Shown here: positions 17,439 through 63,531 of the stretch, one piece after another
How the letters are laid out: each line of letters starts with the position of its first letter
Numbering within the stretch: position 1 is the first letter of the stretch
From: an uncultured Pelagibacteraceae bacterium
GTDB taxonomy: Bacteria; Pseudomonadota; Alphaproteobacteria; Pelagibacterales; Pelagibacteraceae
Length of the DNA stretch: 64,000 nt
Direction of reading: 5' to 3'
Assembly (NCBI GenBank): GCA_902557995.1
Contig: CACECL010000002.1
Location: forward strand, 29,091 to 93,090
The notes under the pieces: model-generated
Databases searched by the model: none
Told to the model about the DNA's origin: nothing
Seen by the model: the letters and a program-made list of their open reading frames with translations, nothing else
Program-made: the position numbers and the translations under genes

Positions 17439-17545
17439 TACCTATTATTTAAATACTATTATTGTTTTAGTAATAAAGAAAATAGACACTTATACTTTAA
17501 AACGAGAACAAACTAAGAAACTTGTATTGATATTTTGATTTAAGG

Positions 17546-17900
17546 TGCCAGATAAACTATAAGCCGGGTTCTGTCATTTAAACCTATCATTTGTCTAGGC
17601 TTGAGATCACTCTCTAGCTCAAGCAACTAACCCTGATGACTAGCCAAGGACGGCTTTTAGTTTTTCAACAATGTCATCTCTACTTAGTCTTGCTCCCAGT
17701 GGGGTTTTCCAGCGTTCATTGTTACCAATAGAACCGGTGTGCTCTTACCACACCTTTTCACCCTTGCCATGTTATGGCGGTTTATTTTCTGTGGCACTAT
17801 CCCTAGGGTTTCCCCCGCCAGGTATTACCTGGCACTGTGTCCTTGTAGAGCCCGGACTTTCCTCTTTAAAAAATTAAAGCGATAAGTCATTTATCTGGCA
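17546..17900 (-). ncRNA. rnpB: RNase P RNA (type A)
   Basis: Minus strand has GAGGAAAGTCCGGGCTC near the 5' end and ACAGAACCCGGCTTA near the 3' end; termini pair as P1 (TGCCAGATAAA/TTTATCTGGCA). Confidence 0.96.
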
Positions 17901-18671: not shown

Positions 18672-18776
18672 AGGTATTATAGGTATAAATTTAGACCATT
18701 TATTAACACTTTATAGACATCATTTTAAATTAAATGCTATCTTACAATAAATAATGAAATAATGTATAATTTAAGT

Positions 18777-19574
18777 ATGTTTAAAAAATTTACTGTTTTA
18801 ATTGTTACTATTTTTTTTATTACAATAAATGCTTATGCAGGATCAACTGGCGAGCTGGAGCTTAATAAGAATGAACCAAAAGAAATTAAAGATTGTTTTG
18901 AAAAATTAAACAGAGCAACATTTTCATTTAATCAAGGACTTGATAAAGCTATTATAAAACCAATTGCAAAAGGTTATAGAAGTCTACCAGATCCAATTCA
19001 GAAAGGAACAAGTAATGCAGTCAGAAATTTATCTAATCTTATAACAATACCTAACAATGTTTTGCAAGGTGATATTAAAATGGCAGTTATAAATACTGGA
19101 AGATTAGTTATAAACACAACAGTCGGTATTTTAGGAACCATTGATGTTGCTAACAAAATGGGTTTTCCTAAATATGAAATGGAAGATTATGGTCAAACTT
19201 TAGGTGCTTGGGGTGTGGGTCCAGGTTGTTACCTAGTAGTTCCGGTTTTAGGTCCTTCCAATTTAAGAGATACTGCTGGATCTTTTATTAATGTAATGGG
19301 TGGAGATCCCTGGTATAATGTATCAGCACATGGGAACAACGAATTTCTTAGCCAAGATATTTATATGATATCTAAAGCTTTAAGTGGTATTGATTTTAGA
19401 GCAAACAACATTGAGTCATTAGATAACCTAGAAAAAAATTCTATAGATTTCTATGCTTCTGTAAAAAGTTTATATACCCAGGATAGAGAAAATAAAATTA
19501 AGAATAATCAAAGAGGCAATATAGAGGTCCTTTACAAAGATGAAACGGACTGGGAAGAAATAGATAAAAAATAG
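18777..19574 (+). CDS. mlaA: MlaA/VacJ family outer-membrane lipid asymmetry protein
   Basis: E..NR..F.FN..LD, R..INTT.G..G, EDYGQTLG.WG..PG.Y...P.LGPS..RD; start at MFKK chosen (ORF track gives 18762). Confidence 0.9.
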   Translation: MFKKFTVLIVTIFFITINAYAGSTGELELNKNEPKEIKDCFEKLNRATFSFNQGLDKAIIKPIAKGYRSLPDPIQKGTSNAVRNLSNLITIPNNVLQGDIKMAVINTGRLVINTTVGILGTIDVANKMGFPKYEMEDYGQTLGAWGVGPGCYLVVPVLGPSNLRDTAGSFINVMGGDPWYNVSAHGNNEFLSQDIYMISKALSGIDFRANNIESLDNLEKNSIDFYASVKSLYTQDRENKIKNNQRGNIEVLYKDETDWEEIDKK

Positions 19575-19589
19575 TTCCACACATACCCT

Positions 19590-20177
19590 ATGAATTTAAA
19601 AAGAATTTTTATAATTTTATTATTATTTAATTTTAATAGTGCTCATGTTTATTCTATGGCACCTGATGTTTTTATTCAATCTACGGTTAATAGGGCTTCC
19701 CAAACATTATCAGAAAATATCTCAAAAGATGAAAAAATATATCAATTAAAGATAATTGCCAAAGAAACTGTAGATATTAAAGGAGTAGGTTTTTATTCCT
19801 TAGGATCAATAAGAAATAAATTAAATGAAGCTGATAAGAAAAAATATTCTGAACTTTTTGAACTATATTTTCTAAAAAGTTTTTCTAGTAGATTGTCAGA
19901 ATACACAAATCCAAAAATTGAAGTTCAAGGAAAAAAGAGATTGAATGAAAACTACACAATTGTTAATAGCAAATTAATTGCCACATCTGATAGACCTGAA
20001 GTAAAAATTGATTGGAGAGTTTATACAAAGAATTCCAATAATCCTTTAATTAGAGACTTAATTATCGAAGGACTTAGTTTGGCAAGAACTCAGAAAGAGG
20101 AATTTGCTTCGATTTTAAATTCTAATAATAATGATATAAATGCGTTATTTAAAGCGTTAGAAGATTTTTCTAAATAA
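19590..20177 (+). CDS. mlaC: MlaC/Ttg2D periplasmic phospholipid-binding protein
   Basis: Signal peptide; I.D..IEG.SL..T...EF motif; follows mlaA. Confidence 0.88.
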   Translation: MNLKRIFIILLLFNFNSAHVYSMAPDVFIQSTVNRASQTLSENISKDEKIYQLKIIAKETVDIKGVGFYSLGSIRNKLNEADKKKYSELFELYFLKSFSSRLSEYTNPKIEVQGKKRLNENYTIVNSKLIATSDRPEVKIDWRVYTKNSNNPLIRDLIIEGLSLARTQKEEFASILNSNNNDINALFKALEDFSK

Positions 20178-20201
20178 CAAATTTATACAATTTGGTAATA
20201 A

Positions 20202-20246
20202 TGTTGGGCCCGCCAGGACTCGAATCTGAGACCAATACATTATGAG
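20202..20246 (-). repeat. att-like duplicate of the tRNA-Ile2 3' half
   Basis: 42/45 identity to 21383-21427; the exact match stops at the anticodon loop (CTCATAA). Confidence 0.92.
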
Positions 20247-20440
20247 CGTCCTTAACTAACTCAAATTAACTTAGTAATAATTTAATAATTTTAGCTTTAG
20301 ATTTTTTGGTACACCCTCTCGTCACTATAAGGAATAATTTTTGATTAAAATTGAGTGTACGAATTAAAAAAAATTTTTTTAAAATTCATAAATAAAACAA
20401 GTTTGAAGCAAACTTTGAACATACGCCAATGATTTACTTT

Positions 20441-20587
20441 TATAATGCATTGGATTTCAATCCTTTTCTATCGTATTCCGCTTTTTTTATTATCTCCCTT
20501 GTTGCGTAATTCGAGTCAAACGAAAAGGATTGAGACCATAACCAATTACAAACTTTTAACCCTCAAAAAATCAATCAACAATAGGAG
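20441..20587 (+). promoter_or_regulatory. Putative promoter and structured 5' leader of the islet operon
   Basis: TATAAT at 20441; 12-bp perfect inverted repeat 20457-20468/20522-20533; SD AGGAG at 20583-20587. Confidence 0.5.
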
Positions 20588-20596
20588 TTCCAATAT

Positions 20597-20782
20597 ATGG
20601 AAATAGGCCGTGTCTGTAAGTACTGTCACGTGAGTGCTTACGTTGCGTATGATAACTGCGACCCCGTTTATAAACAAACTTTCAAATTCGAAATATTACC
20701 AGGTGAACACAACAGTTTAGTCTGGGATAAAATCATAAAAATATTTAAGAAAAATGGATACAAAGTGGAGCTCAAATCATGA
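20597..20782 (+). CDS. Small hypothetical protein with CxxCH/Cys motif
   Basis: 61 aa; good SD (AGGAG) 9 nt upstream; ATGA overlap with next ORF. Confidence 0.6.
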   Translation: MEIGRVCKYCHVSAYVAYDNCDPVYKQTFKFEILPGEHNSLVWDKIIKIFKKNGYKVELKS

Positions 20783-21354
20783 AAAGATTTTTACTTATTA
20801 TTTTATTACATCTATCTCTTTTTTTTCTTGTATTCGCCTACCAAGCCCAAGCAGAAGAGGACAATGAATGGTATGTAAATGACTTTGGGACCTTTGTTGT
20901 TGCTGCAGTATCAGGTGAAGTTATTCATGGCGATAAATTAAGGTTTTTTATAAAAAAAGAAGATTGCTCTAAAGTTTCAATGATGTTTTCATTTTCGACT
21001 AGTTTAAAAAAAGATGAAATTAAAGAACTCCAAGATAAAAAATTACCTATACGTATTAATGATTGGGACACAATAAGAGGTGCTAGAGTAGTTTACGTTC
21101 ATCCTTTTGGGTTTATGACTATAGTTATGATGCAAACACCAGGATATCACAAAATAAAAGAATTTATTGGTGCACTAAATGCAATGTATACGTTTGAGAA
21201 AATGTTTAGTATTCAATTAGTTAAACAACCACATTATGACCCTGAAGATCACTTTGATATTTTGCGTAATCATTGGAAATTAGATCGTCTTGAAGAAAAT
21301 ATAGAAATAGCACAAAGTATGTGTATTGGACCAGATGAAATAAGAAAAACGTAA
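20779..21354 (+). CDS. Hypothetical exported protein
   Basis: 191 aa; Sec signal peptide ending AQA; two Cys; family not recognised. Confidence 0.75.
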   Translation: MKRFLLIILLHLSLFFLVFAYQAQAEEDNEWYVNDFGTFVVAAVSGEVIHGDKLRFFIKKEDCSKVSMMFSFSTSLKKDEIKELQDKKLPIRINDWDTIRGARVVYVHPFGFMTIVMMQTPGYHKIKEFIGALNAMYTFEKMFSIQLVKQPHYDPEDHFDILRNHWKLDRLEENIEIAQSMCIGPDEIRKT

Positions 21355-21382
21355 AATAATAAATAAATTTATCTTAATAATT

Positions 21383-21459
21383 TGGTGGGCCCGCCAGGAC
21401 TCGAACCTGGGACCAATACATTATGAGTGTACTGCTCTAACCAACTGAGCTACAGGCCC
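21383..21459 (-). tRNA. tRNA-Ile2 (CAT anticodon, lysidine type)
   Basis: Cloverleaf GGGCCTG...CTCATAA...GGTTCGAGTCC...CGGGCCCACCA; G1-C72 paired (not initiator); C4-G69/C5-G68 as in TilS substrates; elongator Met not fully excluded. Confidence 0.88.
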
Positions 21460-21517
21460 AAAACTTAGAGTTAGTTATACTATTTTTTTATAGTTATCAA
21501 TTAAAGATGATAAAAAA

Positions 21518-21592
21518 TGGTGGGCCGTGTTGGTTACGCTCCAACTACCCCTGCAATGTCAATGCAGTACTCTACTATTGAGCTAACGGCCC
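21518..21592 (-). tRNA. tRNA-Val (GAC) with non-canonical T-loop
   Basis: All four stems pair; anticodon loop TTGACAT; encoded CCA; T-loop AGCGTAA. Confidence 0.88.
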
Positions 21593-21595
21593 TTA

Positions 21596-23419
21596 TTAAC
21601 TTTCTAAGAAACTTTTTAACTGCTTTGATCTGCTAGGATGCTTTAATTTTCTGAGTGCTTTAGCTTCAATTTGCCTAATTCTTTCTCTAGTAACTGAAAA
21701 CTGTAATCCAACTTCTTCTAAAGTATGATCTGTATTCATCCCTACACCAAATCTCATCCTTAAAACTCTTTCTTCTCTTGGTGTAAGAGTTGACAAAATT
21801 TTTGTCGTAGCTTCACCAAGGTTTGACTTTATGGCTTGTTCTAGTGGCGCTAATGCTTTTGTATCTTCTATAAAATCTCCCAGACTACTATCTTCTTCGT
21901 CACCAACTGGCTTTTCTAAAGAAACTGGTTCTTTTGAAATCTTTAAAACTTTTCTGACTTTATCTAATGGCATTCTTAATTTTTGAGCCAATTCCTCAGG
22001 GGTTGCTTCTCTTCCAAATTCACTTAAAATTAATCTTTGAGTTCTTACAATTTTATTTATAGTTTCAATCATATGAACAGGTATTCTAATAGTCCTAGCT
22101 TGATCAGCAATAGATCTTGTAATAGCTTGTCTAATCCACCAAGTTGCATAAGTCGAAAACTTGTAGCCTCTTCTATATTCAAATTTATCTACAGCTTTCA
22201 TTAATCCTATGTTACCTTCCTGGATTAAATCTAAAAATTGTAAACCTCTATTAGTGTATTTTTTTGCAATTGAAATTACTAATCTTAAGTTTGCTTCTAC
22301 CATCTCTTTTTTTGCAATTCTTGACTCCTTTTCACCTTTTTGAATTCTGCTTACTAATTTTTTAAAATCTGTTACTGATATTCCAAGCTTGTGACTTATT
22401 TCTATTAATCTTTCTCTAATATTTTTAAATTCATTTTTATTTTTAACAAAAAACTGTTTCCAGATAGCATTTGTATCTAAAAAACTTTTTAAGTTTGGAT
22501 TAATTTCATTACCAACATAAAATTTAATAAATTCATTTCTTGGTATTTTATGATCCATTGCAAGTCTTAAAAGATTACCTTCTAAAGAAATAATTTTTTT
22601 ATTTTCGACGTAATGTTTTTGGACAAGTTCCTCAAGTACAGATGGAGATAATTGAAGAGATTTTATATTTTCTAATATATCATTAACAATTTTTTCATAA
22701 CTTTTCTCTTTGGCACTGGAGAAAGATTGTGAATTAAGAACACAATTTAATTTCTCATTCTGATATTTTATTAATTTTGAATATTCTTTTGTAAGAGTAT
22801 TAATAGTCTTAAGAACCTTTGGTTTTATTTCGGTCTCCATTGCTGCAAGAGTAGGATTAAAATCATCATCATCTTCGCCTGAACCTTCATCTTTATCTGT
22901 TTCACCTGCATTTTTTTGCTTAGCACTTGGTCCTGTAGTTTCATCTTCCATATAGTTTGTATCTATATCGATTATTTCTCTTACAAGAATTTCGTCTTTT
23001 TGTAATAGTTCATTCCATTCAAAAAATTGTTGAGCTGTGATTGGACTTTGAGATAATGCTATTAACATTACATCTTTTCCTGCTTCAATTCTTTTTGCTA
23101 TTGCAATTTCACCTTCTCTAGATAGCAACTCAACACCACCCATTTCTCTAAGATACATTCTTATAGGATCATCACTTTTTTCAATTGTTTTACCTTCTTC
23201 TTTGTTAGAGTTTTCTTTTTTTCTTAAAACTTTAAAATCTGATTTTTTTTCAACTAAAGAAATTTTTTCATCCAAAATATGAATAAAAGCTTGTGCTAAA
23301 TTTTCATCAGATAAATTTCTTTTACCTAATGACTTACTTAACTCTTCGTGGGTTATAAATCCTCTATGAGTTCCACGACCCATTAATCTAGCAAATGATT
23401 TTGTAATTATTCTTTCCAC
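21596..23419 (-). CDS. rpoD: RNA polymerase sigma-70 factor RpoD
   Basis: [48 protein letters not shown]. Confidence 0.99.
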
Positions 23420-27051: not shown

Positions 27052-30000
27052 AAAAATATTAGTTGTAGGAGCCGGTCCAATAATTATAGGACAAGCATGT
27101 GAATTTGATTATTCAGGGACACAAGCATGTAAAGCTCTTAAAGATGAGGGTTATAAAGTAGTCTTAATAAATTCAAATCCTGCAACAATTATGACTGATC
27201 CAGATGTTGCAGATAAAACTTATATTGAACCAATTACACTAGGTGTATTAGAAAAAATTCTAAAGAAAGAAAAACCTGATGCAATTCTTCCAACAATGGG
27301 AGGGCAAACTGCGCTTAACCTTGCAATGGAAGCAGAGAAAAAAGGAATTCTAAAAAAATACAAAATTGAGTTGATAGGGGCGAATTCTAAAGCAATTTCT
27401 AATGCAGAAGATAGAAAGAAATTTAGAAAAAATATGATAGATATTGGTTTAGATTTACCAAAATCAGAAATCTTAAATAATAATAATCAAGCAGCAAAAG
27501 TATTAAAAAAAATTGGTTTACCTGCAATTATAAGACCTGCTTTTACACTTGGTGGGCTTGGTGGGGGAATAGCTAAAACTAAAAAAGATTATTTTAAGAT
27601 TGTTAAAAATGGATTGCATGAATCTCCAGTAAGCCAAGTTCTTGTAGAGGAATGTTTAGAAGGCTGGAAAGAATTTGAGATGGAGGTTGTAAGAGATAAG
27701 AAAGATAACTGTATCATCATTTGCTCGATTGAAAATATAGATCCAATGGGAATTCATACAGGTGACTCAGTAACAATTGCACCAGCTCTTACTTTGACCG
27801 ACAAAGAATATCAGGTGATGAGAAATGCTTCTATTGCATGTTTAAGAAAAATTGGAGTTGAAACTGGAGGATCAAATGTTCAGTTTGCTATCAATCCTAA
27901 AAACGGGCGAATGGTTGTCATTGAAATGAATCCACGTGTATCAAGATCATCAGCACTTGCATCAAAAGCAACTGGATTTCCAATTGCGAAAGTGGCTGCA
28001 AAATTAGCAGTTGGTTATACTCTGGATGAATTAAAAAATGAAATAACTAAAGTTACTCCTGCATCATTTGAACCAAGTATAGATTATGTAGTAACTAAAA
28101 TTCCAAGATTTACATTTGAAAAATTTTCTACTTCTCCTGCAACTTTAGGGACATCAATGAAGTCAGTAGGTGAGGCAATGGCTATTGGAAGGAACTTTAA
28201 AGAATCTTTACAAAAGGCTTTGGTATCTCTTGAAACTGGTTTTTCAGGTTTAGACAGAATTTTTGATTTAAATAAAAAGCAAATTGAAAAGAAACTTAAA
28301 GAAACTATTCCAAATAAAATATTACTAGTTGCTGAAGCAATTAGAAAAAAAATAGACTTAAAAAGAATATACAATTTATCAAAAATTGATCCTTGGTTTT
28401 TAGAACAAATTAAGGAGATAGTAGATTGTGAAATACAGATAAAAACCAAAGGACTTCCTAAAGATTTTGCAGAATTTAATAAAATAAAATCAATAGGATT
28501 TTCAGATAAAAAACTTTCGGAATTAACTAAAACGTCTGAAGAAATTGTAAGAAGAAAAAGATCAGCGCTTAAAATACTTCCAGTTTATAAAAAAGTAGAT
28601 ACTTGTGCAGCTGAATTCAAATCTTTTACTCCATATATGTACTCAACTTATCAAAGAAATTTTTCAATTAACTCTGAATGTGAAGCTGATCCATCAAATA
28701 AGAAAAAAATAATTATTCTTGGAGGAGGACCAAATAGAATTGGTCAAGGAATTGAGTTTGATTATTGCTGTTGTCAGGCAAGTTTTTCATTAAAAGATGC
28801 AGGTTATGAGACTATCATGGTAAATTGTAACCCTGAAACAGTATCAACAGACTATGATACGAGTGATCGATTATACTTTGAGCCTTTAAAAGAAGAGTAC
28901 GTATTTAATATTATTAAAAAAGAACAAGAAAAAGGAAACCTAATAGGAGTGATAGCTCAGTTTGGTGGACAAACTCCAATTAAACTTGCTAAATTTTTAC
29001 ATGACAACAAACTTCCAATTTTAGGAACACAATATACTTCTATCGATTTAGCAGAGGATAGAGACCGATTTAGAAATTTATTAAACAAATTAAAACTAAA
29101 GCAGGCGGAGAGTGGAATTGCAAAAACATTTAATCAGGCAATTAAAATTGCAGATAAAATAGGATTACCATTAATGGTAAGACCCTCTTATGTTTTGGGT
29201 GGAAGAGCAATGGAAATTGTTCATGAAAAAAATCAGCTTAAAAAGTTTGTTGAAGAAGCATTTAAAGCTGCAGAAGAAAATCCAATTTTGATTGATAAAT
29301 TTATTGATCATGCAATGGAAGTGGATGTGGATGCCATATCAGACGGAAAACAGGTTCACGTTGCAGGGATTATGCAACACATCGAAGAAGCTGGAATTCA
29401 TTCAGGAGACTCAGCGTGTAGCCTACCCCCTGTATCGATTAAACAGTACCTTCTTAAAGAAATAGAAAATCAAACAAAAAAATTAGCTATAGCTTTAAAT
29501 GTTAAAGGTTTCATGAATATACAGTTTGCAATAAAAAAAGATGAAATTTATGTAATTGAAGTTAATCCAAGAGCTAGTCGAACAGTTCCTTTTGTATCAA
29601 AAGCAAAAGGTCTTCCTCTAGCTAAAATTGCATCAAGAGTGATGGCTGGTGAAAAATTATCTAAGTTTAATTTAAAAGACAAATCTAAAGGTATGTACGC
29701 AGTTAAAGAAGCTGTATTTCCATTTAATAAATTTCCAAATAGTGACTTATTGTTAGGACCTGAGATGAAATCTACTGGAGAAGTTATGGGATTTGATAAA
29801 AATTTTGGAATGGCTTTTGCCAAAAGTCAGATCGCGGCAGCTAACTCATTACCTAAGCAAGGATTAGCTTTTATATCTCTCAAAGATAGTCACAAAGATG
29901 AGGGAATTGATTTAGCAAAACAACTTCTTAAACTTAAGTTTACATTATGTGCTACTAGAGGAACTGCAGAATATATTCGAAAATATGGGATGAAATGTAA

Positions 30001-62395: not shown

Positions 62396-62448
62396 GAATC
62401 CAAATTTTTCAATCTCAGGTTGACCGTAGAATCCATATGGAGTCTAAT
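62396..62448 (+). promoter_or_regulatory. Putative ccrM promoter with three GANTC sites
   Basis: GAATC 62396, GAATC 62429, GAGTC 62440; TTGACC at 62420-62425 with TCTAAT 17 bp downstream. Confidence 0.65.
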
Positions 62449-62460
62449 TAATTTTTACAA

Positions 62461-63531
62461 ATGAAAACTGATTTCAAAAATAAAATAATTAATGGAGATA
62501 GTCTCGAAGAATTAAAAAAAATTCCACGTGAAACTTTTAATTTAATTTTTGCTGACCCTCCTTACAACTTACAATTAAAAAGTGAATTAACTAGACCAGA
62601 TAGATCAAAGGTTAGTGCGGTAAATGATAAGTGGGATCAATTTGAAAATTTTAAAAAATATGATGATTTTACTTATGAATGGCTTAGTGAATGTAAAAGA
62701 ATTTTAAAAAAAGATGGGGCTATTTGGGTTATAGGAAGCTACCATAATATTTTTAGAGTTGGCACAGCGATCCAAAATTTAGGTTTCTGGATTTTAAACG
62801 ATGTCATTTGGAATAAAAATAATCCAATGCCAAACTTTAGAGGGACACGTTTTACTAACGCTCATGAAACTTTAATATGGGCTTCTAAAAGCGAAAAATC
62901 AAAATACACATTCAATTATCAATCTTTAAAATGTTTAAATGATGATTTACAAATGAGATCTAATTGGGATCTTCCAATATGCAATGGTTCTGAAAGACTT
63001 AAAAAGGATGGAAAAAAAATTCATTCTACACAAAAACCAGAAGCACTATTACATAGGATTTTACTAGCTTCATCTAATAAAAATGACCTAATACTTGATC
63101 CTTTTTTAGGATCAGGAACAACTGCTACAGTAGCAAAAAAACTAGGAAGAAATTATTTTGGAATAGAAAAAGAAAAAAATTATTTTAAAGCTGCTGAGCA
63201 ACGCATAAAAGCTACAAAGCCAATTGAGGACGATTTATTAGATACGCTAAAAAACAATAGATCAAAACCAAGAATTCCTTTTGGTTCATTAGTCGAGCTT
63301 GGAATAATTAAACCTGGAACAAATATTTTTGATAATAAGAAAAAAATTACAGCCAGAATTATGGCTGATGGTAGTATAAAACATAGTCAAGCTGAGGGTT
63401 CTATACACAAAGTTGCGGCTACTATTTTAGGAGCTGAAAGTTGCAACGGATGGACTTTTTGGCACTGTGATATAAATGGACGAATTTATCCTATTGATTA
63501 TCTAAGACAAAGATTAATTTCTAAAAATTAA
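62461..63531 (+). CDS. ccrM: CcrM-type beta-class N6-adenine DNA methyltransferase (GANTC)
   Basis: ADPPYNLQL, W.K.NPMPNFRG.RFTNAHET, H.TQKP, DPF.GSGT, C-terminal GSIH..CNGWTFW; follows rnhB. Confidence 0.95.
   Translation: MKTDFKNKIINGDSLEELKKIPRETFNLIFADPPYNLQLKSELTRPDRSKVSAVNDKWDQFENFKKYDDFTYEWLSECKRILKKDGAIWVIGSYHNIFRVGTAIQNLGFWILNDVIWNKNNPMPNFRGTRFTNAHETLIWASKSEKSKYTFNYQSLKCLNDDLQMRSNWDLPICNGSERLKKDGKKIHSTQKPEALLHRILLASSNKNDLILDPFLGSGTTATVAKKLGRNYFGIEKEKNYFKAAEQRIKATKPIEDDLLDTLKNNRSKPRIPFGSLVELGIIKPGTNIFDNKKKITARIMADGSIKHSQAEGSIHKVAATILGAESCNGWTFWHCDINGRIYPIDYLRQRLISKN

Follow-up and report, generated by a model that had tools for sequence, protein, structure and literature searches.

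A conserved, unannotated small reading frame with an internal RNA hairpin at the head of a Pelagibacter island operon

What fills a gap of about 350 bp, apparently devoid of genes, in a streamlined genome such as that of Pelagibacter? The question was raised by the window, that is, the whole stretch of 64,000 nucleotides analysed here (positions 29,091 to 93,090 of contig CACECL010000002.1, assembly GCA_902557995.1, from an uncultured Pelagibacteraceae bacterium), which is AT-rich and in which a strong hairpin precedes two genes on a 1.2-kb islet. A first-pass annotation had described the gap as non-coding DNA and interpreted the hairpin as a cis-regulatory RNA, riboswitch-like or akin to the leader of a type I toxin, or as a stand-alone sRNA. 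Among the bacterial lineages of the ocean, SAR11 is the most abundant, and because few of its regulators are known, every cis-acting control element recognized in these bacteria is informative. The features of the locus are compiled in Table 1.

Table 1. Features of the islet and its surroundings; coordinates refer to the window.
Feature	Coordinates	Strand	Remark
tRNA(CAU) gene, 3' half only, displaced copy	20202..20260	-	Left boundary of the 1.2-kb islet
Presumed promoter plus short 5' UTR, a block of about 60-75 nt	20371..20444	+	Moderately conserved
TATAAT hexamer overlapping the start codon	20441..20446	+	In the window and L003 only
Small ORF, 53 codons plus TAG	20445..20606	+	In the ORF list; conserved, unannotated, SD-less
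Outer stem, 5' arm (codons 3-8)	20451..20468	+	Synonymous sites almost frozen
Imperfect inner stem (20471-20481/20504-20514) and pyrimidine-rich apical loop	20471..20514	+	CUCC at 20494-20497
Outer stem, 3' arm (codons 26-32)	20522..20538	+	Paired in 98.9-99.5% of cells
Conserved peptide block E-T-I-T-N-Y-K-L-L, codons	20532..20558	+	Directly 3' of the hairpin
AGGAG Shine-Dalgarno (SD) sequence of the 61-aa gene	20583..20587	+	Inside the small ORF; AGGA invariant, last G nearly so (72 sequences)
61-aa Cys/His protein, first cargo gene	20597..20782	+	In the ORF list; without family match
191-aa protein, signal-peptide-like N-terminus	20779..21354	+	Start overlaps the preceding stop (ATGA)

The hairpin and the reading frame that contains it

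The outer stem comprises 12 perfect base pairs at 20457-20468/20522-20533, and the positions given in the first-pass annotation for the TATAAT hexamer, the stem arms, the inner stem, the loop motif (20494-20504) and its supposed partner (20576-20587) are all correct. A comparison with shuffled controls, which had been proposed there, comes out in favor of the structure: the 94-nt hairpin folds with -25.3 kcal/mol against -12.7 ± 2.8 kcal/mol for dinucleotide shuffles (z -4.5, none of 200 shuffles being as good), while the reverse strand gives z -3.4 and the fold of a 160-nt stretch z -2.5. In 72 homologues the hairpin has a mean minimum free energy of -24.8 kcal/mol (z -4.5), and it is kept in more than 130 Candidatus Pelagibacter copies. 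RNAalifold retains 15 outer pairs; the outer-stem cells are paired to 98.9% in 38 distinct sequences and to 99.5% in all 72, compared with about 57-65% if the partners are slid by one column. The homologues thus show the conservation that had been asked for, and covariation to a modest degree, the pair at columns 21/100 of alignment A2 occurring as UG, AU, CG and GU.

Many positions of the outer stem exchange U-A and U.G, and such a change between A and G opposite U preserves pairing on the plus strand only; the consensus fold amounts to -7.3 on the plus strand versus 0.0 on the minus strand. Compared with synonymous recodings of the same peptide, the native hairpin gains 12 kcal/mol (mean z -3.9). 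The amino acids opposite the stem changes vary non-conservatively (I/S/G, E/G), from which it follows that pairing, not the peptide, is kept at these sites. The inner helix is found in every group, its register shifted by 1 nt between groups, and the CC of the loop hardly varies, if at all, including at a synonymous site. Covariation in the stem comes mainly from a single pair together with the U-A/U.G exchanges, and the shuffle statistics ignore relatedness; the case for the hairpin is therefore good where conservation and compatible changes are concerned, and only moderate where strict covariation is. Judged by the comparison of homologues, it is conserved as a plus-strand RNA beyond what the encoded peptide requires.

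The peptide in question is encoded by the small ORF, which was already contained in the list of open reading frames and whose conservation as a coding frame contradicts the description of the gap as non-coding. Ending with the stop codon 20604-20606, the ORF overlaps the 61-aa gene by 10 nt. An open frame of 45-62 codons is present in 39 of 40 genome copies, in nearly all metagenome copies of sufficient length among the matches listed, and in each of 51 further loci that had been selected by the 61-aa protein alone. The ATG is invariant in 90 sequences for which it was not a selection criterion, and in 131 of 132 copies the distance from it to the codons for NYK is 96, 99, 102 or 108 nt, each divisible by three; the sole off-frame copy (L035, 98 nt) is a frameshifted relic. 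Another relic, L093, is truncated inside the loop.

The pattern of substitutions is that of a translated sequence. Third codon positions vary most (entropy 0.55/0.47/0.81 by codon position), and the pooled pN/pS ratio is 0.45 in the frame of the small ORF versus 0.82-0.83 in the other two frames. For the TITNYKLL block (about TNYKLLTLK) the ratio drops to 0.18 in frame 1, to be compared with 0.65 and 1.30 in frames 2 and 3, and nearly all substitutions in this part of the alignment are synonymous. The motif MHWIS.LF, like TITNYKLL, is kept at the amino-acid level, and hardly any variation is seen in the first 14 nt counted from the ATG. Residues 9-28, in the middle of the peptide, are nearly neutral with a pN/pS of 0.72. 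The conservation of TITNYKLL suggests that the peptide matters too, be it as a nascent chain or as a small basic protein. Its net charge is +8 to +9; the Kyte-Doolittle maximum over 19 residues reaches 0.9-1.4 with arginines inside the segment, and a clear transmembrane helix is therefore not present. AF2 models the peptide as one long helix with a pLDDT of 69, too weak for a fold search.

Gene callers miss this ORF. It is absent from a collection of 15 billion proteins for all six genomes tested, including records with RefSeq accessions (NZ_ prefix), and a profile search with its alignment against 1.84 billion representative proteins returned only 14 matching clusters, most of which carry extra residues beyond the match, either as N-terminal extensions or as fusions. 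These clusters are probably miscalls of the same element. Distant relatives outside the element did not appear among the 1.84 billion representatives. In view of its absence from the protein collection and the mere 14 or so miscalled clusters among the representatives, the small ORF is to be considered unannotated. Two metagenome contigs (L056 and L148) and protein P0080 have it fused in frame to the 61-aa protein, giving products of 112-114 aa; the fusion could be real or could reflect an indel from assembly or sequencing. Going by the alignments, 20445-20606 is a conserved, unannotated coding frame of 53 codons at the head of a small operon, in which constraints from coding and from RNA structure are superimposed within a seemingly 'intergenic' gap.

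The operon, its junctions and its genomic setting

The conserved operon consists of the small ORF, the gene of the 61-aa protein, and a gene for a signal-peptide-like protein of about 187 aa; it often continues with a 65-aa membrane protein, followed by a 124-aa protein with a similar N-terminus. Homologues of the 191-aa protein follow the 61-aa gene in nearly all loci, or directly follow the small ORF in a deletion variant. Searches of Pfam, NCBIfam, PADLOC and PHROGs gave no credible match for the three proteins (small ORF, 61-aa, 191-aa), and the ESM Atlas yielded only unnamed clusters for the 191-aa protein. The AF2 model of the 61-aa protein has a beta-beta-alpha arrangement with a pLDDT of 66, again too weak for a fold search.

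In most copies the stop codon of the small ORF falls within about 13 nt of the next start, and four types of junction can be distinguished. The offset of the stop is -10 nt in the class of 53/54 codons, +3 nt in that of 51 codons, -4 or -1 nt in that of 45/46 codons, and -13 nt in a class in which a different tiny ORF comes next. The class of 45-46 codons is the deletion variant (L033, L034 and L039-L041; at about +120 to +141 from the ATG), in which a clean deletion has removed the 61-aa gene: the small ORF runs directly into what remains of it, the last codons, and still shares an ATGA overlap with the gene of the exported protein. In another variant (L046, L113 and L131), the upstream block, the hairpin and the ORF persist, while TITNYKLL is replaced and a different ORF of 28 codons follows. 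As far as the sequences allow one to judge, the small ORF thus behaves as a leader ORF, its stop overlapping or abutting the next start and its frame evolving under purifying selection with frame-preserving indels. Comparison of the copies shows the ORF, its frame, the hairpin and this stop-start geometry to be shared features of the aligned elements.

The element appears to be a possession of one genus. A blastn search of 400 genomes of the family gave about 35 strong matches, all in the window's own genus, and with a covariance model of the hairpin, matches were obtained in 8 of the 20 genomes sampled from that genus, as against none in 130 genomes of 18 other genera. Two unpublished genomes (G223 and G068) yielded no more than chance-level matches and enter the tallies only. 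Scanning metagenome contigs with a pattern produced at least 120 stretches, at least 112 of them true copies, and all relatives identified by name belong to Candidatus Pelagibacter or Pelagibacteraceae. About 30-40% of the sampled Pelagibacter genomes carry the element, some in two copies. The search was extended to viruses: blastn of the whole islet against phage records gave tRNA matches only, and the 61-aa protein and the DNA pattern, run against viral contigs, found nothing beyond one chance match (L043).

On either side of the islet stands a copy of the 3' half of a tRNA(CAU) gene, forming a 59-nt direct repeat with 86% identity. The intact gene, at 21383-21459, is assigned to Met by ARAGORN and was taken as Ile2 in the first reading. 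The flanking tRNA repeat is a classic integration scar. The islet has no integrase, and neither integrase nor transposase was found within ±1.5 kb in 40 loci. Some copies of the module sit at the tRNA(CAU) site; most are not next to a tRNA, and several lie beside genes for C5-methyltransferases or restriction-modification systems. In L003, a close relative, two additional minus-strand ORFs are present in the same islet, and L004 carries the module in inverted orientation inside it. Immediately to the left of the islet, at 18762-20177 of the window, are genes for an MlaA-like lipoprotein and an MlaC-like protein (PF04333, PF05494), which in several relatives likewise adjoin the tRNA(CAU) insertion site as its conserved flank. 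Among the matches listed, 63 of 112 contigs end less than 300 nt after the ATG (42 of them within 130 nt), and 8 begin less than 300 nt before it. Assembly breaks fall just inside the module, which would be expected where unique upstream contexts meet a sequence common to many co-occurring strains.

Initiation signals, proposed mechanism and alternatives

Strong conservation always starts at the ATG, 20445; it covers the 61-aa gene and usually reaches into the N-terminal part of the gene after it, whereas DNA beyond the upstream block of 60-75 nt is unrelated between loci. In three loci the start of a divergent C5-methyltransferase gene seems to be no more than about 92 nt away on the upstream side; the corresponding ORFs end 92-93 nt upstream in two of these and 44 nt upstream in the third, where the initiating Met probably lies further back. 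Since the neighbouring genes on this side vary from locus to locus and in some loci are divergently oriented, the operon promoter presumably lies within the conserved stretch of about 75 nt. The perfect TATAAT noted in the first-pass annotation is not conserved among the homologues: the hexamer occurs only in this genome and one near-identical relative, and other copies have GAATCA, GGATCA, GAGAAT and similar sequences in the same columns, most reading GAATCATG. Two candidates for the -10 element, both from a consensus read by eye, can be named. TGATTTAnT, ending at -7, would yield a leaderless mRNA beginning with the A of the AUG. TAGAAT, at -7..-2 in most copies (TATAAT at -4..+2 here) and the best sigma-70-like hexamer, would place the transcription start at about +5 to +9 and exclude the AUG. 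To take TAGAAT/TATAAT as the -10 element would conflict with the coding evidence, unless another -10 such as TGATTTAnT is used.

The two start codons are preceded by quite different signals. Upstream of the small ORF, the duplex with the anti-SD sequence amounts to -0.89 kcal/mol, i.e. background (-0.85), whereas ahead of the 61-aa gene it averages -7.2 kcal/mol. The AGGAG of the latter had been proposed to pair with the loop of the hairpin, and one half of this proposal can be retained. The CCU/CUCC of the loop can pair with the invariant AGGAG in 90% of the cells; the extension TTGTT/AACAA is pairable in 74%, its closing G-C in 39%, with no double changes. The loop-SD duplex has a mean of -7.5 kcal/mol (z -0.73 against shuffled loops), the window's own being among the stronger ones (-10.1, z -1.8), and the SD, which never varies, leaves no room for covariation with the loop. 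The CUCC/GGAG half thus stands as pairable, while the TTGTTG/CAACAA half is unconserved and the energies are close to what composition predicts, and the full loop-SD pseudoknot was discarded for these reasons. A local SD-masking hairpin in the window's own minimum-free-energy fold was likewise set aside, as it is not conserved among homologues.

Further searches concerned known RNA families and other modes of control. Rfam 15 gave no match at the gathering threshold in 20150-20850 and nothing relevant at E<=10, leaving the riboswitch-like interpretation without a counterpart in that library. Elsewhere in the window, Rfam identifies the bablM sRNA at 62396-62464 (plus strand, 75.9 bits) and the class A RNase P RNA at 17544-17898 (minus strand, 285 bits). 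No terminator-like site was detected in a scan of 19500-22000; the stem is followed by ACCAUAACC, not by the U tract that, after a G+C-rich stem, marks an intrinsic terminator or attenuator. The conserved structure is a single extended hairpin with no multi-helix, aptamer-like junction. A programmed -1 frameshift into the frame of the 61-aa protein was rejected, since in this copy that frame is blocked by a TAG within the SD region, 5 codons ahead of the ATG, and the 15 nt concerned contain no slippery site. In the search for an antisense promoter, consensus scans, which are weak, gave a single minus-strand match, at 20620-20592, located on variable codons of the 61-aa gene.

Taken together, these features probably describe a translated leader ORF whose internal hairpin throttles an SD-less start and to which the cargo genes are translationally coupled. 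A promoter within the conserved 75 nt or so would give rise to an operon mRNA starting with the SD-less AUG at 20445. The stem starts at +7 of the small ORF and the hairpin spans nucleotides +7 to +94. Position +7 falls within the footprint of the 30S ribosomal subunit at initiation. Sitting inside the landing zone of the ribosome, the hairpin would limit initiation at the small ORF, which probably takes place mainly on nascent RNA while the 3' arm is still untranscribed. Ribosomes translating the small ORF would melt the hairpin, cross the AGGAG of the 61-aa gene and terminate on top of its start codon, and translation of the cargo would thereby be coupled to that of the small ORF. As long as the hairpin stands, the CCU/CUCC of its loop may also mask the AGGAG. 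A strict dependence of the cargo on the small ORF is not required by this scheme, as the 61-aa gene has a strong SD sequence of its own. Throttling, coupling and masking are inferred. A more elaborate version, which we consider improbable, makes the element a dual sensor: TITNYKLL would stall in the ribosomal tunnel, and the stalled ribosome and the hairpin, with its loop mimicking an anti-SD, would jointly decide on exposure of the AGGAG. If true, it would represent a previously unknown nascent-peptide control of a mobile island operon in about a third of Pelagibacter genomes.

Several other explanations have to be weighed against the coupled leader ORF. The peptide might act in trans as a small basic protein, a partner or subunit of the operon products, with the hairpin only tuning mRNA stability or translation rate. 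The conservation of TITNYKLL and MHWIS.LF as amino acids, the in-frame fusions to the 61-aa protein (L056, L148 and P0080), the high positive charge and the single long helix of the AF2 model would all be in keeping with such a role. However, the composition of the nearly neutral residues 9-28 follows the needs of the stem arms, L046, L113 and L131 are without TITNYKLL yet keep hairpin and ORF, the pLDDT is only 69, and the 1.84 billion representative proteins hold no relatives outside the element, so this remains a rather unlikely, if reasonable, alternative. The original interpretation, a non-coding cis-regulatory RNA of the riboswitch type or a stand-alone sRNA starting at about 20452, with the reading frame incidental, draws on the conservation of the hairpin, the -10-like hexamers just before it (TATAAT here, TAGAAT in most copies), the anti-SD-like motif in the loop, and the fact that pyrimidine-rich arms make stop codons rare in any frame over the first 20-39 codons or so. 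Against it, none of the four indel classes disturbs the frame, substitutions beyond the 3' side of the hairpin are almost exclusively synonymous, each of four architectures has the stop following the position of the next start, and the ATG is invariant in 90 sequences unselected for it; furthermore, there is no terminator, no Rfam match, and a single hairpin without aptamer-like junction. What survives of that interpretation is a conserved plus-strand hairpin at the 5' end of the cargo, most likely with a role in translation, while the notion of a non-coding RNA, riboswitch or sRNA has become very improbable.

A type I toxin-like module, i.e. a membrane-active peptide silenced by a structured mRNA and an antisense RNA, might be suspected because the ORF is small, unannotated and located on a flexible island, because a strong hairpin adjoins the start codon, and because the N-terminus is cationic and partly hydrophobic. 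It is nevertheless quite unlikely, given a hydropathy of 0.9-1.4 without a clear transmembrane helix, no conserved antisense promoter seen, and an ORF that, unlike type I toxins, is always coupled to downstream genes. Finally, the hairpin could be an element at the DNA level, a recombination or integration site or a cruciform at the edge of a mobile cassette. The module does occur in many genomic contexts, sometimes beside tRNA repeats, 63 of the 112 contigs among the matches listed end less than 300 nt after the ATG, and the 14 nt from the ATG are nearly invariant. On the other hand, G.U pairing is found on the plus strand only and the minus-strand consensus fold is 0.0, the breakpoints between variable and conserved sequence lie about 60-75 nt upstream and downstream of the hairpin, not inside it, and no recombinase is linked to the module; a DNA element is accordingly the least credible of these explanations, and a most improbable one.

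Relation to known systems

The element was missed by gene callers and RNA-family libraries alike, and it offers a way to approach a functionally uncharacterized island operon that is often located beside restriction-modification genes. It also carries a practical lesson for streamlined genomes, namely to look for small ORFs in a long 'non-coding' gap before calling it a riboswitch.

Coupled leader ORFs in structured mRNAs are represented by mok/hok of plasmid R1 and by the kinetic folding control of the maturation gene of MS2. There, too, a short upstream ORF ends on or beside the next start, structure limits the entry of ribosomes, and downstream expression depends on the upstream frame, a coupling that is predicted for the Pelagibacter operon. 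There is no sequence relation to these systems, and the present hairpin differs in being inside the leader ORF, directly after an SD-less AUG; moreover, the downstream gene has a strong SD of its own, and no antisense RNA is evident.

Regulatory nascent-peptide leaders form a second group, exemplified by secM-secA, mifM-yidC2, vemP and ermCL. With these, the element shares a small ORF having a conserved peptide block near the ribosome-binding site of the regulated gene, in combination with an mRNA hairpin. In contrast to these leaders, TITNYKLL resembles no known arrest motif, and the cargo is not secretion machinery. The distance between TITNYKLL and the SD varies between variants and is much shorter in the deletion class, and a conserved SD-sequestering hairpin downstream is missing.

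Within SAR11 itself, the Pelagibacter families in Rfam (Meyer et al. 2009, PMC2704228) are likewise structured elements at the 5' side of genes that were found via marine metagenomes. The present element differs from them, and from riboswitches, in that it appears to be coding, consists of a single hairpin and matches no Rfam model. As for the genomic setting, small tRNA-linked gene cassettes have been described in the flexible islands of SAR11, four of which are bounded by partial tRNA repeats (PMC11796062), just as the 1.2-kb islet in the window is bounded by a partial repeat of a tRNA gene. Unlike those cassettes, most copies of the present module are not adjacent to a tRNA, and the operon, the small ORF and the hairpin are undescribed there. 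No description of an element combining this small ORF and hairpin was found in the literature searched, and as a family it appears to be undescribed; in kind, it most closely resembles a coupled leader ORF in a structured mRNA.
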